Shown in pieces: positions 50,834 to 64,000 of a DNA stretch of 64,000 nt. The notes below the pieces were generated by a model. That model did not search any database. It was not told the origin of the DNA and worked only from the letters and a program-made list of their open reading frames with translations. Positions within the stretch are counted from its first letter, which is position 1; each line of letters opens with the position of its first letter. The DNA comes from Candidatus Omnitrophota bacterium (GTDB taxonomy: Bacteria; Omnitrophota; Omnitrophia; Omnitrophales; Aquincolibacteriaceae). The stretch is from positions 20,634 to 84,633 of the forward strand of contig CAIOAT010000047.1 of the NCBI GenBank assembly GCA_903856085.1, given 5' to 3'. A program made the translations under genes and the position numbers.

Positions 50834-52894
50834 ATGCAATTTTTCAGACCTGAACATTTAATTTTTTTATGGTTGGTGCCGACGGTACTGGCCTTCTATG
50901 TCTTTTCGCGAAGGCTATGGCAAAAGCGCATGCATCGGTTGGTTCAGGATGAAACACTCCTTTCCAAATTGATCGAGGGTTACAGGAAAAGCGAGTGGCT
51001 TATCCGTACGATTCTCATGACGCTTGCCGTGCTTTGTCTCGTGCTCGCGCTCGCACGTCCTCAATGGGGCGACGAAAAACGGAGGGCCCAGCGCAAGGGC
51101 GTAGACATCATTTTCATGGTCGACACATCTCTGAGCATGCTTGCAGAGGATATTAAGCCCAACCGCCTCGAAAAAGCCAAGTTTGAGATCGAAACCTTTA
51201 TCCGCAACCTTCGCGGCGACCGTATTGGCATGGTTACTTTTGCAGGTTCGGGATTTCTCCAAACACCGCTGACGCTCGATCATGCAGCCTTTCTCCTGTT
51301 TCTGGATGCCGTTCAAGTGGGATTTCTTCCGGATCCCGGGACATCACTCGTCCAAGCCTTCCAGTTGGCTTTGCGTGCCTTTCCCGAAAAGGAGCTCAAA
51401 TACAAAGCCTTGATCCTCTTTACGGACGGGGAAGACCATGAAGGCGGAATTGAAAAGACTATCGAAGAGGCCAAGCAGGCTAATATCAGGATCTATTGCG
51501 TAGGCCTTGGAACGGCGGAAGGGGAGCCCATCCCCCTCAAGAACGAAAGAGGGGAGCGATCGGGATTCAAGAAGGATCGAAATGGGCAAATGGTGCTCAC
51601 ACGGCTCAACCAGCCGCTTCTCGAACGGCTCGCCAAAGAAACGGGCGGGATCTACCTTCCCGCTTCGCCGTCAGAAAAAGAGGTCGATGTCATCTTAAAA
51701 CATCTTCGTGGGTGGGGAGAGCAGCAATTCGCAGAAAAAATGGTGGTGGAGCGCGAAGACCAATACCAAGGGTTCCTGATCCTCGCCCTAATCTTTCTGG
51801 CTGCCGAAATGCTTATCCGACGAAAAAACAGCAAAAGTCCGGCCTTGATGGCCTGCCTCGCTGTCTTTTTCCTTTTCACGGGATTTCTTGAGACCTCACA
51901 GGGTACGGTCAAAAAAGGTAACGATCACTTTCAAAACAAGCGCTTTCAATCCGCCCTTGATGCCTACCGCAAGGTTCAGGTCAAGAATCCTGACGCTCCG
52001 GAAGTGCTCTATGATCTTGGAACAACGCTCTACAAAGTTGACTCTTTTCAAGAATCGGCCCAGGATCTCGAGACCGCTTCTAAAACCGCCCAGGATCCGC
52101 AGCTGAAAGCCCGCGCGCTCTACAACGCTGGGAACGTCCAGTACAGGCTCGGAAATTTCGAAAAGGCCATTGATTCCTATAAAAAGGCTCTCGCCCTGGA
52201 CCCGAACGACAAGGACGCCAAGTATAATCTCGAATTCCTTCAAAAACAGAAGAACAAGATTGATAAAAAGGACAAAGATAAGAAGAAAGACGATCAGAAA
52301 AAAGACAAACAAAAGAAAGAGCAGCAGAAGAATAAGCAGGACCAAAAAGATCAACAAGATCAAAAAGATCAGCAACAACAGCAGCAACCTAAGCCTCAGG
52401 ATCAGCAGGATCAAAAAGATCAGCAACAACAGCAGCAACCTAAGCCTCAGGATCAGCAGGATCAAAAAGATCAGCAGCAACAGCAGCAACCGAAGCCTCA
52501 GGATCAGCAAGATCAAAAAGATCAACAGCAACAGCAGCAACCGAAGCCTCAGGATCAGCAAGATCAAAAAGATCAGCAACAGCAACAACAGCCTAAGCCT
52601 CAGGATCAGCAAGATCAAAAAGATCAGCAACAGCAACAACAACAGCAGCAACCTAAGCCTCAGGACCAGCAGGATCAACAGAAGGAGCAAGAGGAACAGC
52701 AAAACCCGCCGGAGCAGCAGAAAAGCCCTCAAGATGAGAGCCAAGGGCAATCCAAACGTCCGCTCCAGGGGCAGATGAGCATGGATAATGCCCTCAACCT
52801 ATTGGATGCTCTGAAAGAATCTGAAAAAGAGCTTCAGGACCTCCGTCGTCCACCGGTTAACAAGAATCCGCCGCCGGTGGATAAAGATTGGTAA
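50834..52894 (+). CDS. BatB-like VWA + TPR protein with an internal Gln-rich tandem-repeat region
   Basis: N-terminal TM helices, MIDAS DIIFMVDTSLSM, FTDGEDH, TPR repeats (ALYNAGNVQYRLGNFEKAIDSYKKALALDPND), then a 6 x 17-aa repeat. Confidence 0.8.
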   Translation: MQFFRPEHLIFLWLVPTVLAFYVFSRRLWQKRMHRLVQDETLLSKLIEGYRKSEWLIRTILMTLAVLCLVLALARPQWGDEKRRAQRKGVDIIFMVDTSLSMLAEDIKPNRLEKAKFEIETFIRNLRGDRIGMVTFAGSGFLQTPLTLDHAAFLLFLDAVQVGFLPDPGTSLVQAFQLALRAFPEKELKYKALILFTDGEDHEGGIEKTIEEAKQANIRIYCVGLGTAEGEPIPLKNERGERSGFKKDRNGQMVLTRLNQPLLERLAKETGGIYLPASPSEKEVDVILKHLRGWGEQQFAEKMVVEREDQYQGFLILALIFLAAEMLIRRKNSKSPALMACLAVFFLFTGFLETSQGTVKKGNDHFQNKRFQSALDAYRKVQVKNPDAPEVLYDLGTTLYKVDSFQESAQDLETASKTAQDPQLKARALYNAGNVQYRLGNFEKAIDSYKKALALDPNDKDAKYNLEFLQKQKNKIDKKDKDKKKDDQKKDKQKKEQQKNKQDQKDQQDQKDQQQQQQPKPQDQQDQKDQQQQQQPKPQDQQDQKDQQQQQQPKPQDQQDQKDQQQQQQPKPQDQQDQKDQQQQQQPKPQDQQDQKDQQQQQQQQQPKPQDQQDQQKEQEEQQNPPEQQKSPQDESQGQSKRPLQGQMSMDNALNLLDALKESEKELQDLRRPPVNKNPPPVDKDW
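52340..52690 (+). repeat. Imperfect 51-nt tandem repeat (~6.5 copies) within the BatB CDS encoding (PKPQDQQDQKDQQQQQQ)n
   Basis: Directly visible periodicity, with synonymous differences between copies (cct/ccg, cag/caa). Confidence 0.85.
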
Positions 52895-53468: not shown

Positions 53469-54242
53469 CCTTCCGAATACCTTCTTGGCAAGGCCAGTTC
53501 TCCCTGGGAACTACTTTACATAAGATACATTATAGGACGTGAATACTTCAGACGAAGCGTTCCTCCTATAGGGTTAAAGCACTGTGCCTGGTCTTGTAAT
53601 TCGAGCAACCCGGAGCAAGTAAATGATATCGTCGCGATCAATCCGAGAAGGTCACCCTCAACAAATTACAAGCCCTGGTCAACTGAAACGGATTAGCGCA
53701 GACACCCGTCAGGGCTTCTCGAGACGAAGCGCATTTTCCCGCACAAATTTAACGCTTTTTCAATAGAGAGGCTTGAAACGGTTCCGGAAGATTGTTCTTA
53801 GGTGACCTCTGCCCCTCCCATTTCGGAGTCAAGGCTATAAATAATATACTCGGGACCTGCCCGGAGACTGCCACTGAACATCCTTGATCCTTTTTGGCCA
53901 TAGACGACCAAAGACCGGTTTTTATCGACAGGACAGATTCGGGAGGATTATTAGAGGAAAAATTGCCGCCCCAAGAGCCATTACCTCGTGCGAACATCCA
54001 CGACAGATTTCATCACATACTCAAAACGGCTGGCCCATAAACCGAAGGGCTTGTTCTTGCACAATTCTCTTATCAACCGTTCAGTTTTCATTTTTATTCG
54101 CCTGTCATTTCTGCGACGCTCAGAACTCAACGCGGATTTGCGCGGAATAAACCAAGGATTTCAAAGAAAGAATAGGAAGTTCTTTGGGTTTAATCAGGGG
54201 CTTTATAACCCCTCGAGGCTTTTAGAAAATCTCGGGTAAAGC

Positions 54243-57200
54243 TTATGCCGCTGTAGCGACGGACTTTTGGGCGGCAACCTCGCCAAGGAGGGCCTTCATG
54301 AATTGGTTGGCAAAGAATGCGGCGACAGCATAATCGTTACCGACTTTGGGATTCTTGATGCCGGCGTGATCGATCACCAGGTCAATTCCGATGGTCGCAA
54401 TGGCATTGGTCGCCGCGGCAAGGGATTGCCGTCCTTCAGGGGTTTCAGCCCACTCCGGAGGATAGACAAAGGTGCCTTTATATCCCTTGCTCTGAACAGC
54501 CTCGCGCACCTGATCCAAGCTTAACGCGTTGCCAAGGAAGATCACGTGCTCCGGACTCACGCCTCGCAGCTTCAACTTTGCAACGATCTCTGGGATCTCA
54601 GCACCGATCTTATCAGGAGCAATGACCCTGACCCCCGGAACATCCTCGAAATTCTTATCTCCTACGACAAACACGTAAGGATTCGTGCGGGCAGCCATAG
54701 CATCAAGGGTCTTCATTTTCTCGACACTGCCGTTCACGATGATCTGCTGGGCAATCTCGACCATTTTGGCGTCGAACGGCTGGAGGGTCTCGGACTTGTT
54801 CCTCGCCATACTCACGAGAGCTTTGATCAGATCGATCTGCGAGCGGATACTTGCCGCGAATTCGGGATCCTCAGTCGCTATCTCCGGGTGATTCGCAAGG
54901 AGCGACCCCATGAACGCCGCGGTATCCTCGTAGGCCAAAAATTCCTGCTCAAGATCACCGAGGCGTTGATTTTCAGGGAGCGCGTGCGAATTCTCATGGA
55001 CCATGCCCCACGCCAAGGTAAATTGCACGCGCCGCTCCAGATTTGCGAGTTCTAGCTTCGAAAGCGTCTCGGACGCCAAGGCTTTGGTATAATCCGCGAG
55101 CTTATCGCCATTCAGAACCACTCCGCCATTCCGGAAATAGCCGACATGCCCCTGGATCAGCTCGCGCTCTTCAGGCGTTGTAGCCATCTTCCAATTCGCG
55201 CCCGCCCAATGATTTCCCTTATAGTTCTTCGCCATATCATAAGCCGCTCTCGCCACCTTATCTGCTGAATTCAACTCCGCTGGGGCAACCTCGGACGCAG
55301 AAACTCTCTTCGCTTCAGATCGCGGAGCTTCGACGGATCTCAATACCTCCGGCTCGTCCCGTAGTTCCGCGCGCGGAGAGTTCATTTTTTCAACAGACTT
55401 TTGCATCACGACGGAGGCCGGGGCGATATAATCGATATACTCCCTGCCATCCTCCCCCTTACGCTCCCCTGCCTTCGAGAAACCAAGCCGCTCGTACAGC
55501 TTGATCGCCTTGGTGTTCTTGGGCTCGACGGAAAGGGCGATCGGGACGCTTGAGAAACCTCTTTCTGAAAGGTTCTTCGCAAGGCCGTAGATCATCGCCG
55601 TCCCGAGTCCTGAGCCTTGGGCGGCTTGGGCCACACCCACGTTATAAATATAAGCCATGTCCCCCTGAATCGGAGCCGCCAGGAGATACCCTTGCACCTT
55701 TCCGTTCACTTCATAAACCATGCTAAATCCAGAGGCCGCATCTGCCTGCAAGATTTTTGCGAAGGATTCGGCAGAAAAATCTGTCAGTTCGTTCTGTTTC
55801 CCGGTCTCATCACTGACAGCAATGGCTTGTCTGATCCGATCACCTGAGGCAGAATTGAGAGCCCTAAAACTTCCCGGGAGCCCCGTCTCTTTCATATTGA
55901 GCGTTTCATTTTTCACGAGTTCACCGCGGAATTTTGCTAAAAATTGAGCGCTGAACTTTTGAGCGTCGGATCCGGCGGCCAGCATGGGATCGGCCCCCAT
56001 TCTTCCCAGGATATCCATCGCGAACATAGCCAACTGCTCCTTGACCATCTTCGCCTCGTCCGCTGATAAAGAAAATCCCGCATAGCTCGTATCCGTCAGG
56101 TTGCGAGCAACCTTCTCCAGATACCCCGGCAAAAACTGAGTCGCGATCATTGAAATGTGGCTCGCGATCAGATGTTTTCTCTCAGCCTCCTGGGCCTGCA
56201 GATCCGTCATCTTTTGCATGGCAATCCACTCAGGAGAAGCAAAGATCTCGCGCAGGAATGAGTGCAATTCCGCACCGATCAGCGACGCTTTCTTAAACAT
56301 AAAATCCTGTTTATCCCGGAAGCCGTAGATCCTTCCGTCGTAATCGAAAGCATGAAGATTATCCAGATCATGACCTTCTTCGTGGATCGCCGTATGCTTT
56401 TCGTAATTATTCAGCATGAATGTGTAGCGCAGATACTGTTGAGGTTTGCCGAACGGTTCGCTTGCTCCAGATTCTCCATCTTCCATAAAGAAACCGGCCG
56501 GTAAATGCTGGGGATCAAGAATAATATTGCCGCCAACACCATTAGCTTTGGGCTGGAAGGAAGCGTGCATCAGGGTTTCTTCATTCAGCCCGTATCTTGA
56601 GATCAGATGATCCAGGGAATCATCCAGGTTCTCCAGAATCCATTTCACCGCTTCCCGTTTAACGTTGGCGTCTGTGGAGTTCAACTTTTGGAGCATTTGA
56701 TCTTTCTCACGGTGCTCAAGAATGCTGATCATGCCTCGCAGTCCGCGTAACTTTTGAGCCGCCGCATCCGATCCAAATACGGACGTCAGAGCGACTTTTA
56801 GAGAAAGCATCAGCGTGCTTTCGTAATCCGCCCAATTTCCGGCCGCGGCAAGCGCATCGAGGTCGTTTTTCGCAGCTTCGGACAGATAGGGATCGAGCAA
56901 CGGACGGAGAAGGCGCCAAGCGCTCGGACGGCCTGTTCCGGAAATCGCAGGGTTATTTTCCAGGGTCTCGATGACAAGCGCTAGAAGGGCATTCGCGTTC
57001 CGAGGATCAAGGTTTTTGATCATTTCCGGATCGAGCAATTCGCCCTCCGGCGTAAGGAACCGGATCGAAAAACGATCGGACAAGTATTTACGGCGGGACT
57101 GATCGCGCATAACTTCATCCCGCGAAACGGGAGCAAGGGTTCTTCGTATGCCGGGCTGACCCATCCTGAAATAAACGGCAGTCATTTCAGAGATGCAGTC

Positions 57201-60200
57201 GGACGTACCGCAAAAAACAAGTTCGTCCCAAGAGCGGATGTTCCGACCGTTCAAAGCCAGGCCGTTGCGCACCGCATCCGCATAATTTCCTTTAAGACTC
57301 GTCCGGACTTCGAAAGCGTATCTTTCAAACTCAGCACGGCTCGGATTCGTCAAAACGGTAAGCGACTGATCGGCGTGTCCTGCGGGCGATCTGAGCCGCA
57401 TCCGCTCCAAATCCATGGCGGCATAGAGGCGGTTCGCGGCATCGCGGCGAAGCAATGCCTGCGCCCAGTCAACGCGGCCTTCCGCGATAAGGTTATTGAT
57501 CAGCTCGGCTGTTTGTTGCGAGGTAAAATTCCTGGGAATAAAATAACCTCCCAGACCGTCCATGACAACCCGCATCAGGTCGTCTACGGACCTGAATTGA
57601 TGGAAAGCGATCAGGTCATCCAGGCTCGTCGCGTTGCGCCGTATCCGGGCTACGATCCCCGAAACAGTTATGTTGTGTGCCTGAAGAGCTGCAGCAAATT
57701 CCGTGCCTGGCTGATCCTGTTCCTTAAGGATATCCTCAAGCCGGAAGAGAGAATCAAGAGCTTGCTGAACTCTTTCTCTCATCGCGCGCGCAGCCTTCTC
57801 GCGCCAGCCCACGACGTAGCCGCTCGGGTTCTTCGGGTCAGTGTAGAGCCGAAGTTTTTCAACGATCTCTCGGCGATCGTAAATATGGGCCTCGTCCGGA
57901 TCGTAAACACGGCCGTGTTGTTGGGCATAGAAGGTCAGGAGCTCTTCTAAGAGATTCTGGTCTGTATCGCGGAAGTCAGATCCCTCGAGACCTCTGGGAT
58001 CATTAAAGTGGATCGTTTCATGCAACCATGACGGTTGATAGTACTGTTCGGACAGCAAGATCACAGGGAGTTTTTCAAAAATCGTCCCTTTGAAAGTGCC
58101 TACCGATTGGGTATTACTGCCAAACCATCCAGGGTTGGTAACAGGCATCCAGCCGGCGGCTCTAAGTTGTTTTTCAATCTTATAGGGCATCACAACCGAC
58201 AGCGTCGGATGGTCCGAAATATTCTCCTGGATCATATAGGCCCTGCGGTAGTACACCTCTTGCTCGCGGACGCTAAGGGACTCCCACATTTTCCCGTCCC
58301 TTTCAGCAAGAGATTTCGCGAAAGAAATAAATTCAGCGTCTCCCTTACGGAAAGCGAGTTCAGGAATAGGAACATCCAAGTTTTCCGATGGACTGGCCGT
58401 TACGACCTTGATGCCGATCAGCATTTCGGGCGTGATCGCGGAACCGGCCGGCATTTTAACGTTAAGAATTTTTGCCAGTTCTTCACGCGCTTTCAGATTC
58501 TCCGGAGAATTTTCGGGAGAATTCAATCCGTTCACGATCTGATCATTAATTTGATCGATAATACCTAGCCGCGCATTGAGCACATCCTCTGAAAGCTCAA
58601 GCGGCGGCTCGCCCACAAGCGTCACGGCACGATCCTTATTCCGGGCGAAATGCAGGATATCCGAGCGCAGGAAGTCCTGTCCTTTGCGACGATCGCGATT
58701 CTCCCGGTTGATCGACAGCAACAGGTCGGAAAGACCGGGCGCAATAGCATCCAGACGGCCTTGCATTTCCTCACGAAGTTTGCTGTCCATAATCGTTCGC
58801 GCTTTCTCGATCTCTGTGTAAGCCCTCCCGAATTTCACAACATCCTCAGTGGAGACACCGGCGATTTGCAGGGGCTCTACAGCCTTCTGGAGTTTCCCTT
58901 GAATCTCCTGCGCGGCAGCCGAATTTTTATCTTCGATGGCGCTGAGCTGTTCAAAAAGCGTCCGGATTTCCAGAAGCTGGAAAATCGTAAGATTGGTTTG
59001 TTTTCCGATCTGCTCGAGTTCCTTTTTCGCTTCGTTGCTTTCCTGCTCGACTTGTCTGACCACACTGTTGAGCTCGATCTCCGGCACCAGTTTTTCTCCG
59101 GCTTTAATGCGCTGCATGAGTTCAGCCTTAGGCGCATTCTGGATCGCCACGTAGGCAAGCATCAGCGCGGTCCAGGAATTGACCGGGACCTTTTGTTCGC
59201 GAATAGCCTTCATGATATCGCTCAGCACCATCTGGCGGCGAAACTCTGTCGAAAAGAACCCACCCACCACACGACCGAAAGCGCGGGAAATCATCATTAA
59301 GTTGCCAAATTCCCCTTTCTCGGTCCGGAACTTGTTGTCCCTCTTGATCAGCCATGTAGAAAGTGCGACACCCATTGCAAGGCCTGACGCCCACCCACTC
59401 ATGAAAACAAGGGCCGCCGGCAACAGAGGTGCCGCCAGGACCGAGACGAGCAAGGTAGGACCAAGAGTGACCGCAACCGCCAAGGTGGCGGCAACCAAAC
59501 CAAGTCCGATGCTGCCCGACGTCAGGAGCCCGTAATTACCGATCATGGTCGCTATCTTCCACGACCATTTCTGTCCCATCGTAAGCTCCGCTGCCAGGGC
59601 ATAGCGGCCCTGGTTGGACTGGAGATTCGCGATGACAGGTCTAAGATTCTCGAGAGCCGCGATTTCAGCTTTAAGTTTGGCATCATCGGCAGCTTCATCC
59701 ACGGGTTGGCCTTCTGCCTTCCTAGCCGCCTGGTCCTTCAGGGCTTTTTCGATAAGGGATTGGCGCATACTCGCCAAGACGTCGTCCACGCCAGTCTTGG
59801 ATCCCAGGCGCGCATCGACAAAATCGCGCTTCTGCTTGATGAGCTGATCGAGTTCTGTGAGGCTAAGCTTTAACACCTTTGGATTTTTCGCGGCATATTC
59901 CTGAAGCTCGTCGGCATTGCGATAAGCCGACTGATGATCCCAATGGATCACGTGAGCCAGGTTCAGGAACGCGAACATCGTCTTCCAGATGGCCGCTTCA
60001 TAGGCGGCCTCATCGCCAAACGCTTGCTTGTCCCCCACAAGCTTTATCGCCACTTTGCGCACATCGCCCAGGGAATCATAACGGGCTTTGCCAAACTGGA
60101 AAGCATCCATCAGCGAGACTCCAAGCACCGTTCCGAGAGTCACGGCAACAGCCGATCCCAGGAGCAGCGGTAGCAGCGCGACACCAAAGATAAGACCCGC

Positions 60201-63200
60201 CCAAGGCACGGCTACAGCGGCAACAACCGCTGCGGGAATGGCTGCTCTTGCCCATTTGTTCTCTGTCAGGAACCGCGATGTCTTCGTCAGCATTTGAGAC
60301 GCGCTGAATTTGAATTTTTTCCACCCGCGCTGGAACCGGCTTGCACCTTCGGACTCTGTTTTCTGGTAGTCAAGCCAGAACTTTCTCTGCGTCTGATAAT
60401 CCTTCTGATCACGTTCGAATTGACTGATCATTCCGTCATAGATCCGGTGCATTTCACGAAGGATCTTGGGATCAGAAACCTTGCCCATGGCTAATTGAAC
60501 CAATGCCACGGAGAAGGCCTGTTCGCGGTTCCGATCAAGGGACGCGGCATTGCGGGCGGTAAGCGCCGTGCGGAAGTCGGCCACGGACAACGCTCTGGCG
60601 TCAAAGACCGTTTCCTCCTGGAAATTCCCGAACTTGGCGAGGTAATCAAGCGCCGTGGAATCGATCTCAGCGGCGTTGTAAAAACCAAGATCAATCATCT
60701 GCCGAACGAAGAACAGGGCTTCTTTTGAAGCATCGCCCGCTTCACCTTGAGGGACTAATCCGAGCAATTTCTGCAGCATGCTGTTGAGTTGCCCCCCTTG
60801 CGGTTCCCCGAGACGCTTGGCAAGCGCTGACACGAGCGCGAGGATCTTCTCGCCCTGCGAATTGAGGTTACCTTGAGCGTCGAATCCTCCGTTGGCTTCA
60901 ATGAGCTCCCGATGGGCGGCTGCTAATGCTTCCGCTGCCGCGGTTTCCGCCGTTACGTCAAGCGTCTGGGCCGCCCTTTCCATTCCCTCCCGGGTCTGGA
61001 TCGCTGCCTGCATTCCTGCAGAGGCACGAGGCGCAGTCTGGGTCGCCTTCATATCATGGGGACCAACCACCTGACCCGCAACTTCCACAAACCGGACAAT
61101 GTCGCCCTGTGAACCGACGCCTTCGTCATGTTTGTGCTGACGTTCAAATTCCTGGGCCTTCGCAAGAAGCTCCTGATAGGTTTTTTGATCCTGTATCCGA
61201 GCCTCAAGTTCCTTGAGGCGGTTACCTTGCTCTTCGCTAGGTGTCGCAAGCCCCTTCAGTTGCCCGAGCTCGGTCATTTCCGCGGCTGTCAGCTGATCGA
61301 ACCACACGGGATCGATATCTTTTAAGCCCTGGAGGCGACGGAACTCGGTTGTTTCTTCGGCCGTCATTTTCGCACCGGCAAGTTTCAGCACGATCTCAGC
61401 ATTCGCGGTGAGGGCCCGTTCCGCCACCAGCAGTTTGTTTTCCGGGGAGACAACGGACGAGTCACTCACTTCCGTCCACAGCTCACGAGCCTCATCCAGC
61501 ATCCGGTTGAGCCTCATTTGAAGCACATCCACGGCCTCCGACTCTTTCTTCGGCCGTTCCCAGCTATCGTTTTTACTGAGAGAATTCTGGATCTCCATCA
61601 GTTTTTGAGCGAAAAATCCCTGCTCCTCTGGGGTCTTGGAATTCTGGATAAGCTGACGGAAGAAATTTTCGGCTTCGGCTTCCAACGCTTCCATCATGCT
61701 GTTAAAGGTGGCCCGCTCGCCCTCAGGATCGTTTTCCGCATTCATCCAGGTCCAAAAAGCCTGGATCCGCTCGGCATCGGTCTTGGCCTCTTCGATCTTC
61801 CCTCCGAATCTTTTTCCGACCGCCACAATGTAAGGCGAAGGCACTTTAAAATCCTGGAGAGAAAAGACCTGATCCAGCTTGGTGCCAAAATAGATCTTCA
61901 TCCTGTCGTTCAGGTTCTGGTTCTGGGCCGCCAATTTTTCATTGGAGAAGCGCTCATGATTGCCGAGGTAATTGAACTGCCAGACGTAGGGGGCTTCACG
62001 CGAAGGCACATCGCCTTTTCTATACACGGACTCGCCGGTAGCCGTATTGATCTCCCAGTAACCCACGGCTTGCCCCTTCACGAGGTCACGGACGACCGCG
62101 ATCAGAGCTCCGTCGCCCATTCCGACAAACTGCCCTTTATTATCCTTCAGGAATTCTGTCGCGGTTCCCGCTTCAGCCTTATGAATAATGCCTTTTTCGT
62201 CCGTATAAGTGAGCGCGTCATGACTATAGGCATAATGAGCAAACTCGTCCAGTTTGGCTGCGACACCGCGGAGACGTCCCAACAACTGGTCCAGCATTTC
62301 CATGTCCACGCCTTCACCGACAAGCATTGCCGGCACCGTCGTGTTATCCATCATCATGCTGAACCCAACCGTTCTTTGCGTAAACAGAACCCGGCGCTTC
62401 GTACTGAGCTCCGTTCCGGCCAACTGCTGTCCTAACCTCTCCGCGAACCATTGGTTTTTAAGTTCTTTATACTCCGTCGCGTCTCCTTGTTCACTTATGA
62501 GCACCGGCACTTCATAGCCCGACCCATCCGCCTTCAGGCGGTAAACCTTGAAGCCGCCTTCTTCGTCGATAACCACCTCTTCAATCTTGTGAGCCAGAGC
62601 CTCCCGCAAAACCTCCCCGATAGCATTGGTCACATGGTCTTGTGTCACCGCACTAAAAATAGCAAGATTCTTTGGTTGACCGTCCGCCTCCATGGATTTC
62701 ATATATTTTTCGAAGACATTTCCGATAGCCTTCCGGATGTCGCCCGCCCCCGAGATCTGATAACCATGCAACCGGGCTTCGGCATTAAGCGCCATATACC
62801 GCTGTGCCGCGCGAACCGTAGCGGAAACGACCCCGAAAATAGCCCGGAACGACTGCCCGAATTTTTGCACCGTCGCGGACGTAAAAATGGCATTACCGCC
62901 AAGCCGGCGGATACTGTCGACTATGATGCTCAGTTGGGTTTGAAGTCCAAACCCCGATACTTCCACATTCCGCTGCGGGTTCGCCTCAGCGCCCTCCAGA
63001 GGCTTGAAGATCATTTCAAGCGCAACGGAATAGGATGCGGAATGGAAAGTCATCCTGGGTTCGGCCTTGTTCTGGGAAAAGGGTGCTACTTTATAGATCC
63101 ATTTCTTATTCCCCTGTTTATCCTGCGTCTCGTACCAAACCACCGTAACGCCTTGCCCGCCCTCAGCCCGCTGGCTCTGCATCAAAGCCATCGCCCACTG

Positions 63201-64000
63201 ATTCGCTGCATCACGGACATCCCGATGCGCAATATCTTGAGACTCGTTGAACTTCTGCCATGTCTCTTCGGGGGTTTTACCCTTGAATTTTCCACCGCCC
63301 ACCTCTTCGGCGATGAAGGCCTGGAAAGCGTCGGTGAACATAAAACGCTTGTTCGGAAATTCCTTAACCACTTCACGCATTTTGAGGTTCAAAACATTGG
63401 CGATCGCTTTAGCGGTCAGAACCCTCTTCTCCAGCTCCGAGTATTCTTTGGTTAAATTAACAAGCTCATCGAGTCTGGACTTCTGTTCTTTGGACAGGCT
63501 GGGCAATGCCTCGAGAGTTGCTTTTTCGGTCTCATGCTGCGTTTTTTGTTCGGTCAGCCATTTGAAGCGATCCACTTCGCTGGGAGTCTTGGCGCCCGGA
63601 CGGTCCTTGAGGACCAGCTTACTTAATTCTTTCCAAGCCTGGGTAGCGCTCATCGAAAAAGCTTTGTCTGTCTTCGGATCCGTCCACTCGATCGGAATGC
63701 CCTCTTTATCAAGCCATTTCAGGAGCAAAGTCCGTATCAGCGCGCCGTTTCTGGCTTCCGTGACAGTCGCTCCCCGGGTCCCGCCACCTTCGCGGAAATG
63801 CTTATTAAAGAGCAACTGCGATTCATCAAAAAGCGCGAGTGAGCGACCGAAAATTTCCTGGAAAGCCGTCTGGACCTCGGGAGATTTGATCGTCCCTAAC
63901 GTAAGGAAACCCAGTGAGCTGAAGGTGATATCGACGATCTTAGCGTTCGTGATCCGGCTCAGTATATCCGTTACGACAGCCGCATCCCCGCTTTGCAGTT
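54243..64000 (-). CDS. Giant multi-domain membrane protein, 5-prime partial (at least 3250 codons; the ORF is still open at the window end). It has a long N-terminal region of unknown function, 2+3 predicted TM helices, a C-terminal region containing a GNAT acetyltransferase fold and three HExxH motifs, and a C-terminal alpha/beta domain.
   Basis: An uninterrupted 9.75 kb reading frame on the minus strand. The track start at 63815 is a TTG, and hand translation shows no in-frame stop from 63816 to 64000. Motif positions are given in the findings. Confidence 0.85.
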   Translation of the reverse strand, partial: LQSGDAAVVTDILSRITNAKIVDITFSSLGFLTLGTIKSPEVQTAFQEIFGRSLALFDESQLLFNKHFREGGGTRGATVTEARNGALIRTLLLKWLDKEGIPIEWTDPKTDKAFSMSATQAWKELSKLVLKDRPGAKTPSEVDRFKWLTEQKTQHETEKATLEALPSLSKEQKSRLDELVNLTKEYSELEKRVLTAKAIANVLNLKMREVVKEFPNKRFMFTDAFQAFIAEEVGGGKFKGKTPEETWQKFNESQDIAHRDVRDAANQWAMALMQSQRAEGGQGVTVVWYETQDKQGNKKWIYKVAPFSQNKAEPRMTFHSASYSVALEMIFKPLEGAEANPQRNVEVSGFGLQTQLSIIVDSIRRLGGNAIFTSATVQKFGQSFRAIFGVVSATVRAAQRYMALNAEARLHGYQISGAGDIRKAIGNVFEKYMKSMEADGQPKNLAIFSAVTQDHVTNAIGEVLREALAHKIEEVVIDEEGGFKVYRLKADGSGYEVPVLISEQGDATEYKELKNQWFAERLGQQLAGTELSTKRRVLFTQRTVGFSMMMDNTTVPAMLVGEGVDMEMLDQLLGRLRGVAAKLDEFAHYAYSHDALTYTDEKGIIHKAEAGTATEFLKDNKGQFVGMGDGALIAVVRDLVKGQAVGYWEINTATGESVYRKGDVPSREAPYVWQFNYLGNHERFSNEKLAAQNQNLNDRMKIYFGTKLDQVFSLQDFKVPSPYIVAVGKRFGGKIEEAKTDAERIQAFWTWMNAENDPEGERATFNSMMEALEAEAENFFRQLIQNSKTPEEQGFFAQKLMEIQNSLSKNDSWERPKKESEAVDVLQMRLNRMLDEARELWTEVSDSSVVSPENKLLVAERALTANAEIVLKLAGAKMTAEETTEFRRLQGLKDIDPVWFDQLTAAEMTELGQLKGLATPSEEQGNRLKELEARIQDQKTYQELLAKAQEFERQHKHDEGVGSQGDIVRFVEVAGQVVGPHDMKATQTAPRASAGMQAAIQTREGMERAAQTLDVTAETAAAEALAAAHRELIEANGGFDAQGNLNSQGEKILALVSALAKRLGEPQGGQLNSMLQKLLGLVPQGEAGDASKEALFFVRQMIDLGFYNAAEIDSTALDYLAKFGNFQEETVFDARALSVADFRTALTARNAASLDRNREQAFSVALVQLAMGKVSDPKILREMHRIYDGMISQFERDQKDYQTQRKFWLDYQKTESEGASRFQRGWKKFKFSASQMLTKTSRFLTENKWARAAIPAAVVAAVAVPWAGLIFGVALLPLLLGSAVAVTLGTVLGVSLMDAFQFGKARYDSLGDVRKVAIKLVGDKQAFGDEAAYEAAIWKTMFAFLNLAHVIHWDHQSAYRNADELQEYAAKNPKVLKLSLTELDQLIKQKRDFVDARLGSKTGVDDVLASMRQSLIEKALKDQAARKAEGQPVDEAADDAKLKAEIAALENLRPVIANLQSNQGRYALAAELTMGQKWSWKIATMIGNYGLLTSGSIGLGLVAATLAVAVTLGPTLLVSVLAAPLLPAALVFMSGWASGLAMGVALSTWLIKRDNKFRTEKGEFGNLMMISRAFGRVVGGFFSTEFRRQMVLSDIMKAIREQKVPVNSWTALMLAYVAIQNAPKAELMQRIKAGEKLVPEIELNSVVRQVEQESNEAKKELEQIGKQTNLTIFQLLEIRTLFEQLSAIEDKNSAAAQEIQGKLQKAVEPLQIAGVSTEDVVKFGRAYTEIEKARTIMDSKLREEMQGRLDAIAPGLSDLLLSINRENRDRRKGQDFLRSDILHFARNKDRAVTLVGEPPLELSEDVLNARLGIIDQINDQIVNGLNSPENSPENLKAREELAKILNVKMPAGSAITPEMLIGIKVVTASPSENLDVPIPELAFRKGDAEFISFAKSLAERDGKMWESLSVREQEVYYRRAYMIQENISDHPTLSVVMPYKIEKQLRAAGWMPVTNPGWFGSNTQSVGTFKGTIFEKLPVILLSEQYYQPSWLHETIHFNDPRGLEGSDFRDTDQNLLEELLTFYAQQHGRVYDPDEAHIYDRREIVEKLRLYTDPKNPSGYVVGWREKAARAMRERVQQALDSLFRLEDILKEQDQPGTEFAAALQAHNITVSGIVARIRRNATSLDDLIAFHQFRSVDDLMRVVMDGLGGYFIPRNFTSQQTAELINNLIAEGRVDWAQALLRRDAANRLYAAMDLERMRLRSPAGHADQSLTVLTNPSRAEFERYAFEVRTSLKGNYADAVRNGLALNGRNIRSWDELVFCGTSDCISEMTAVYFRMGQPGIRRTLAPVSRDEVMRDQSRRKYLSDRFSIRFLTPEGELLDPEMIKNLDPRNANALLALVIETLENNPAISGTGRPSAWRLLRPLLDPYLSEAAKNDLDALAAAGNWADYESTLMLSLKVALTSVFGSDAAAQKLRGLRGMISILEHREKDQMLQKLNSTDANVKREAVKWILENLDDSLDHLISRYGLNEETLMHASFQPKANGVGGNIILDPQHLPAGFFMEDGESGASEPFGKPQQYLRYTFMLNNYEKHTAIHEEGHDLDNLHAFDYDGRIYGFRDKQDFMFKKASLIGAELHSFLREIFASPEWIAMQKMTDLQAQEAERKHLIASHISMIATQFLPGYLEKVARNLTDTSYAGFSLSADEAKMVKEQLAMFAMDILGRMGADPMLAAGSDAQKFSAQFLAKFRGELVKNETLNMKETGLPGSFRALNSASGDRIRQAIAVSDETGKQNELTDFSAESFAKILQADAASGFSMVYEVNGKVQGYLLAAPIQGDMAYIYNVGVAQAAQGSGLGTAMIYGLAKNLSERGFSSVPIALSVEPKNTKAIKLYERLGFSKAGERKGEDGREYIDYIAPASVVMQKSVEKMNSPRAELRDEPEVLRSVEAPRSEAKRVSASEVAPAELNSADKVARAAYDMAKNYKGNHWAGANWKMATTPEERELIQGHVGYFRNGGVVLNGDKLADYTKALASETLSKLELANLERRVQFTLAWGMVHENSHALPENQRLGDLEQEFLAYEDTAAFMGSLLANHPEIATEDPEFAASIRSQIDLIKALVSMARNKSETLQPFDAKMVEIAQQIIVNGSVEKMKTLDAMAARTNPYVFVVGDKNFEDVPGVRVIAPDKIGAEIPEIVAKLKLRGVSPEHVIFLGNALSLDQVREAVQSKGYKGTFVYPPEWAETPEGRQSLAAATNAIATIGIDLVIDHAGIKNPKVGNDYAVAAFFANQFMKALLGEVAAQKSVATAA

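Follow-up and report, generated by a model that had tools for sequence, protein, structure and literature searches.

A GNAT acetyltransferase domain near the C-terminus of a giant Omnitrophota protein

What is a domain with the signature of an acetyltransferase doing inside a giant protein with membrane segments? The question is raised by the stretch analysed here, 64,000 nucleotides of Candidatus Omnitrophota bacterium DNA (assembly GCA_903856085.1, contig CAIOAT010000047.1, positions 20,634 to 84,633; hereafter the window), in which the 3' end of a giant gene lies on the minus strand. We consider it reasonably likely that minus-strand positions 55419-55871 encode an intact GNAT N-acetyltransferase that is probably catalytically competent, and that this enzyme resides in a tail free of transmembrane segments and acts in the cytoplasm, with a protein or peptide amino group as its likely substrate. 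Residues are numbered throughout from a TTG codon at 63815 (residue 1). The domain findings cover the last 3,251 residues of the protein, its 45,000 or more upstream residues lying outside the window.

The GNAT domain and its predicted active site

An earlier note on this DNA, made from the letters alone, had read a GNAT-type fold from the peptide MAYIYNVGVAQAAQGSGLGTAMIYG, followed by LAKNLSERGFSSVPIALSVEPKNTKAIKLYERLGFSK. The first of these is indeed encoded by minus-strand positions 55584-55658 and the second directly after it, the coordinates given in the note being off by only 1-2 nt. The acetyl-CoA-binding motif that it named, V-x-V-x4-Q-G-x-G-x-G, is found in the same frame (Q2733, G2736 and G2738). 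The note had proposed a Pfam search and a structure prediction as checks, and its GNAT reading is borne out by both. The features concerned are as follows.

55419 to 55871, minus strand: complete GNAT fold in an AlphaFold2 model, residues 2649-2799, slightly wider than the span flagged earlier
55479 to 55748, minus strand: Pfam Acetyltransf_1 profile match, residues 2690-2779
55602 to 55619, minus strand: predicted acetyl-CoA pyrophosphate-binding loop Q2733-G-S-G2736-L-G2738 (motif A, between beta4 and alpha3)
55524 to 55532, minus strand: S2762-V-E2764 on beta5, placed by alignment A1
55494 to 55496, minus strand: invariant Tyr2774 on alpha4, in L-Y-E-R-L-G-F, placed by alignment A1

The PF00583 (Acetyltransf_1) profile scores 53.3 bits (E 4.2e-14) on the whole open reading frame (ORF) and 58.8 bits on an isolated 174-aa segment, against a cut-off of 20.7; such a match is far beyond chance. 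PF08445 (FR47), PF13508 (Acetyltransf_7) and PF13673 (Acetyltransf_10) likewise score above their cut-offs. The GNAT is the only Pfam domain across all 3,251 window residues of the giant ORF, and a second GNAT, looked for within the window, was not found. All PHROG matches with a named function are acetyltransferases. In the PDB, the best sequence match is RimI (5isv, E 1.8e-7), ahead of phosphinothricin acetyltransferase (5dwm, 3.3e-7) and YpeA (2pdo, 5e-6). The top NCBIfam match is RimI (TIGR01575), at 43.7 bits for the whole ORF and 49.3 for the segment. The domain is closest to the N-alpha protein acetyltransferases, yet it is no RimI equivalog. A recent insertion of the domain was considered and rejected on composition, its GC content at third codon positions (0.596) being in line with that of the rest of the gene (mean 0.607 +/- 0.038).

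The AlphaFold2 model (mb8ac7afecf60) has a mean predicted local distance difference test (pLDDT) score of 90.8 and a predicted template-modelling score of 0.87. Its elements run beta1-alpha1-alpha2-beta2-beta3-beta4-alpha3-beta5-alpha4-beta6-beta7, an exact match to the canonical GNAT topology that includes the beta-alpha-beta core. When the model was compared with the PDB by Foldseek, 642 matches were obtained at E <= 1e-3, and the best 50 of these are almost all acetyltransferases. E. coli RimI is the best match (5isv, E 3.6e-9); the other leading entries among the best 50 are archaeal Ard1/NAT proteins (5c88, 4lx9 and 4pv6), NatC Naa30, Naa50 and Naa10. E-values to RimI and Ard1 are about 4e-9, and the template-modelling score normalised to the target reaches 0.85-0.89 for Ard1 4pv6.

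Alignment A1 (n=62) comprises the window segment (residues 2630-2820), 55 free-standing GNATs and six GNAT segments from proteins that are long or cut off by a contig end, four of them clearly related to the window's giant protein (relatives are designated P0001 to P0009). Within the predicted loop, 55 of the 62 sequences have Q or R at position 2733, 61 have G2736 and 56 have G2738. Further along, Y2774 is kept in all 62, L2761 and N2767 in 61 each, A2770 and G2778 in 60 each, V2763 in 59 and F2779 in 58. The loop and the invariant Tyr are retained even where relatives share no more than 25-52% of their residues over the domain.

Tyr2774 aligns with the Tyr of ALYESLGF in E. coli RimI, and we take its position to be that of the general-acid Tyr of RimI-like GNATs. 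We further assume that the catalytic pair of RimI consists of a Glu on beta5 and a Tyr on alpha4 (Glu103 and Tyr115 in Salmonella), with column 2762 as the general-base position. That column holds E in 38 of the 62 sequences, but S in the window, P0001, P0003 and P0004. Column 2764 is E in these same four and in P0009, and R in 31 of 62. The hairpin between beta6 and beta7 also carries a five-residue insertion, K-G-E-D-G, which is a gap in about 56 of the 62 sequences and is present in full in P0001, P0003 and P0004. The Ser/Glu shift and the hairpin insertion distinguish the GNAT copies embedded in giant proteins.

During catalysis, the Q-x-x-G-x-G loop would bind the pyrophosphate of acetyl-CoA, and a substrate lodged between the alpha1-alpha2 and beta6-beta7 loops would receive the acetyl group on a primary amine. 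If the residues work as in RimI-type enzymes, Tyr2774 may act as the general acid that protonates the leaving CoA thiolate, and either Glu2764 or an ordered water may serve as the base. The tail carrying the domain would lie in the cytoplasm, where acetyl-CoA is available; the acetylated amine could belong to the giant protein, to fragments processed from it, or to a partner.

The giant protein and its relatives

The earlier note had placed the domain in a membrane protein of more than 3000 aa. Its embedding in a continuous giant ORF with hydrophobic blocks stands; the size was underestimated, since the protein has at least 48,655 aa. The relevant features of the gene are given below.

54243 to 64000, minus strand: 3' end of the giant gene, its last 3,251 codons plus the stop, with the frame open to the window edge
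60099 to 60248, minus strand: hydrophobic block 1, about two transmembrane helices, residues 1190-1239 (Kyte-Doolittle scan)
59355 to 59546, minus strand: hydrophobic block 2, two to three transmembrane helices, residues 1424-1487 (Kyte-Doolittle scan)

The frame is open from the stop at 54243 to base 64000, and the GNAT lies about 400 residues before the C-terminal end of the protein. When the neighbouring YqeY protein was looked up by exact sequence, the same locus was found on JGI, ENA and Logan assemblies. Eight of them, independent of one another (L004-L011), match the window with zero mismatches over the 9,226 bases of the giant gene that they share with it. Gene calls on these assemblies range from 11,867 to 48,655 aa, and coordinate arithmetic puts each of the six longest (31,210-48,655 aa) at its contig end; in L008, for example, 1911 + 145,968 - 1 = 147,878, which is the length of the contig. 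Given that calls on identical DNA reach contig ends, the giant gene has at least 48,655 codons (at least 146 kb), a length that rests on the gene calls, the comparison with the window covering the 9.2-kb overlap. The start of the gene is absent from all these assemblies, each of which breaks inside the gene, at differing points. As all eight are identical over 9.2 kb, they offer no usable strain variation as a measure of selection. It was also observed that L004 (JGI 3300009502) and L006 (ENA ERZ27313164), which come from different sources, are identical to the window over 20.4 kb (43022-63468). From the 20.4-kb and 9.2-kb identities across assemblies, one clone appears to occur in many samples.

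Both hydrophobic blocks have Lys/Arg-rich flanks, and no transmembrane candidate follows residue 1487, the best 19-residue Kyte-Doolittle hydropathy there being 1.35. Hence, the last ~1,700 residues, GNAT included, would all be on the same side of the membrane. Two points, the positive charge of the flanks and the enzyme's requirement for acetyl-CoA, suggest the cytoplasmic side, but weakly, because block 2 could hold either two or three helices. Taken with the lack of a transmembrane segment in the tail, they make a cytoplasmic site of action look more likely than the cell surface; the earlier note had suggested that the enzyme might modify a target on a host, on prey or on the cell's own surface. 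A lone 14.8-bit PADLOC match in a hydrophobic block was disregarded.

To place the tail among its relatives, its last 1,200 residues were compared exhaustively by HMMER with 1.84 billion representative proteins. There were 279 matches at E <= 1e-3 and 9 at E <= 1e-10, and the strong ones derive from the C-terminal parts of other giant proteins; P0001, P0004 and P0009 each begin at a contig edge with an open frame. A word-indexed homology search with the 3,190-aa query returned nothing, and with the last 954 residues only P0001, the index apparently being without very long proteins. A related-locus search with residues 2440-3190 found no relatives in genome or metagenome contigs. P0004 is probably the orthologue in a related species, its locus being syntenic with the window: the end of the giant gene, inserted toxin-antitoxin genes, YqeY, and then a VWA-TPR gene.

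In joint alignments, P0001 (53% identity) and P0003 (41%) have the GNAT and the module upstream of it in common with the window, while P0004 (32%) shares the GNAT and the C-terminal module. The GNAT segment alone is 48-52% identical to all three. This exceeds the identity of the longer joint alignment for P0003 and P0004, though not for P0001, and for those two it would fit a stronger constraint on the GNAT domain. In P0002 (7,417 aa) and P0005 (6,046 aa), the upstream module is present and the GNAT is absent by local profile. A different module, with H-x-D, D-N-R-x-G and T-(T/K)-E-E-x-G motifs, occupies the same slot (residues ~6600-6900 of P0002 and ~5270-5600 of P0005). The GNAT is therefore a module that is conserved yet swappable. 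An M20-peptidase reading of the replacement was considered and not adopted; it has no Pfam match, and the PDB offers a hint at most, with ureidoglycolate hydrolase and peptidase T at E 0.7-1.0.

The slot is bounded by the following features.

55881 to 56948, minus strand: upstream (HEEGH) module, residues 2290-2645, defined in alignment A2 (n=7)
55359 to 55376, minus strand: linker P-R-A-E-L-R directly after the GNAT, residues 2814-2819
54246 to 55328, minus strand: C-terminal module, residues 2830-3190, homologous to the C-termini of P0004 and P0008
54246 to 54260, minus strand: terminal tail VATAA, residues 3186-3190

The pattern T..H-E-x(2-3)-H...N....D-Y-D.R-I is invariant in the seven sequences of the upstream module, and an AlphaFold2 model (pLDDT 76.6) places H-E-x-x-H in a helix after a small sheet. 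The module has no Pfam match and no Foldseek match in the PDB (best E 0.46). A zincin metalloprotease reading was rejected, there being no Pfam or PDB match and the spacing of the two His residues being HExxH or HExxxH among homologues. Similar H-E-x-x-H sites were noted at residue 1932 (HETIH, 58008-58022) and, within the C-terminal module, at residue 2940 (HENSH, 54984-54998); self-BLASTP found no internal repeats, and the three regions are not detectable duplicates.

The linker recurs as P-R-A/S-E-L-R at the same place after the GNAT in P0001, P0003 and P0004. P0001 and P0002 have further copies in other parts of their C-terminal regions, P0007 has variants, and the motif might mark the edge of a module or a site of processing. 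At the very end of the protein, (A/S)-A-COOH is present in 9 of 10 giant-relative ends (window included) versus 3 of 141 other, unrelated matches; the conserved end was noted in the window, P0001-P0005 and P0007-P0009. The endings are ATAA, ASAA, ARAA, AQSA, EASA, GKSA and LTSA, preceded by an (A/S)-E-(I/L/V) stretch. In sequence, this conserved end is reminiscent of a sorting signal or of an ssrA-like degron; it is unmentioned in West-Roberts et al. 2023 (10.1101/2023.11.21.568195) and in the 2026 catalogue of Omnitrophota giants (10.64898/2026.06.07.730766).

Substrate and competing explanations

We favour a protein or peptide amino group as the substrate because the nearest relatives of the domain, in both sequence and structure, are N-alpha protein acetyltransferases and because a cytoplasmic location is the simplest one for the tail. 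Several points weigh against this reading. The substrate class cannot be read from the GNAT fold, and the small-molecule enzymes phosphinothricin acetyltransferase, YpeA, EctA and SpeG score nearly as well as the N-alpha acetyltransferases. The RimI equivalog score is below threshold (44-49 bits versus 86.4), and the usual beta5 Glu is a Ser. Moreover, the GNAT is not essential to the family, since P0002 and P0005 are without it. The membrane topology is uncertain as long as block 2 may contain two helices or three, and topology predictions for these giant proteins have been called unreliable (10.1101/2023.11.21.568195).

A possible alternative to a protein substrate, although we regard it as doubtful, is a small molecule or amino sugar, for instance a polyamine, a precursor of the cell envelope or an amine resembling an antibiotic. 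Such an activity would suit the carbohydrate or cell-wall processing role proposed for Omnitrophota giant proteins: sugar-metabolism domains are abundant in the giant proteins of the 2026 catalogue (10.64898/2026.06.07.730766), and cell-wall compounds are favoured by West-Roberts et al. (10.1101/2023.11.21.568195). Matches to the phosphinothricin acetyltransferase, YpeA, EctA, SpeG and AAC families all reach or approach significance, and the sequence E-values of 5dwm and YpeA 2pdo are near that of RimI. However, the domain reaches only 26-31 bits against an NCBIfam equivalog cut-off of 300 for the small-molecule GNATs, the top sequence and structure matches are N-alpha protein acetyltransferases, and Pfam finds no glycosyl or sugar-handling domain in the 3,251 window residues.

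It is unlikely that the GNAT is an effector or toxin which, after cleavage or delivery into prey or host, uses the victim's acetyl-CoA in the manner of GNAT toxins and secreted effectors. Omnitrophota have been described as predatory or host-dependent, with one giant protein up-regulated on prey contact, the recurring P-R-A-E-L-R linker after the GNAT could be a processing site, and the domain is swappable, being absent from P0002 and P0005. On the other hand, TacT/AtaT-type toxins are neither among the best 50 of the 642 structural matches nor among the PDB sequence matches. Unlike these toxins, which are not its closest family, the window GNAT is embedded in a larger protein and has no antitoxin-like gene next to it within the window. 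The window shows no identifiable secretion signal or delivery apparatus, and nothing points to export of the tail.

A reading of even lower probability would treat the tail as a modular cassette for processing protein N-termini. The swappable slot between two conserved H-E-x-x-H modules would hold a GNAT akin to N-terminal acetyltransferases in the window, P0001 and P0003 and a module with faint M20-aminopeptidase-like motifs in P0002 and P0005, ahead of the (A/S)-A-COOH end; the GNAT might then cap N-termini generated by cleavage of the giant polypeptide, for example at P-R-A-E-L-R, or of prey proteins.

A catalytically dead fold kept only for structure or binding is the least credible explanation and very improbable in our view: the canonical beta5 Glu is replaced by Ser and the domain is dispensable in some relatives, but the glycines of the loop, N2767 and the invariant Tyr persist in relatives with 25-52% identity over the domain, the same strand has a Glu specific to the subfamily two residues further along, and many active GNATs have no dedicated Glu base. 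Both the effector and the dead-domain roles are thus less likely than an active N-acetyltransferase.

The locus, its counterparts and their meaning

For the window's DnaK, identity reaches 97% with a Candidatus Omnitrophota metagenome-assembled genome and 86-94% with about twelve more, the majority of which carry an Omnitrophota label. Among the matches at 86-97%, every record with a phylum label is an Omnitrophota or Omnitrophica metagenome-assembled genome, and three are labelled 'uncultured bacterium'; DnaK proteins of other phyla are at most 70% identical. The neighbours of the giant gene are ordinary chromosomal genes, namely DnaK, a MoxR-DUF58-VWA-BatA-TPR operon, YqeY and a sigma-54 two-component pair, and Rfam and tRNA scans of the window found nothing.

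Between yqeY and the stop of the giant gene lies a 774-bp gap (53469-54242) that has neither a convincing ORF nor an Rfam or tRNA match; in a syntenic locus of a related species (L092), toxin-antitoxin genes (PhdYeFM/ParE and AbiEii) are inserted in the corresponding gap. Within the VWA-TPR gene (50834-52894), a 51-bp tandem repeat of 5.8 copies with 94% matches (52349-52643, plus strand) encodes a Q/D/K/P-rich tract. Downstream of ~52,408, both L005 and L007 are an exact match to the window; upstream they are out of register, which indicates an indel in or near the repeat. In L007, the VWA-TPR protein is called 17 aa shorter, the equivalent of one repeat unit; in L005, the gene is not called as a single ORF.

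Among described systems, the closest setting is that of the Omnitrophota giants themselves. West-Roberts et al. 2023 (10.1101/2023.11.21.568195) reported GNAT family acetyltransferases on both Archaeovorin and Dockerin-type giants. The 2026 catalogue (10.64898/2026.06.07.730766) lists PF00583 in 93 of 916 long Omnitrophota proteins, grouped with methyltransferase, histidine-kinase ATPase and HAD domains, and it reads transmembrane helices without a signal peptide as placing the bulk of the protein on the cytoplasmic face. The window's protein resembles these giants in its phylum, in a gene of more than 30,000 aa (six gene calls), in its transmembrane blocks and in its embedded PF00583. It differs in that SecA_DEAD, dockerin/TSP3, glycosyltransferase and C39 domains were not found in the last 3,251 residues. 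Against the hallmark of many transmembrane regions together with a divergent SecA DEAD domain, these same residues show two hydrophobic blocks and no SecA match.

RimI (5isv, 2cnm) is the best counterpart of the domain itself by both sequence and Foldseek, sharing its size, topology, Q-x-x-G-x-G loop and the Tyr in L-Y-E-x-L-G-F. In contrast, RimI is a free protein of ~150 aa, whereas the window GNAT is embedded in a giant polypeptide, has Ser for the beta5 Glu and the five-residue beta6-beta7 insertion, and scores below the TIGR01575 cut-off. Ard1/Naa10, Naa30 and Naa50 (4pv6, 5c88, 4lx9, 7mx2 and 6yzz) have the same fold and the highest structural overlap, but their sequence identity is just 15-22%, and the window GNAT is without their auxiliary subunits or ribosome-anchoring context.

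A GNAT on an Omnitrophota giant protein is already known, and our analysis adds detail rather than a new concept. The new details are the affinity to N-terminal acetyltransferases, the subfamily's own Ser/Glu shift and hairpin insertion, the swappable slot and the conserved C-terminal tail. The giant proteins of Omnitrophota are among the largest predicted in any organism, and an enzyme domain of ~150 residues that is confidently folded and conserved is one of the few parts of them that could be directly expressed and assayed. Being small, confidently folded and conserved, the GNAT domain therefore offers a practical way into the function of the tail.

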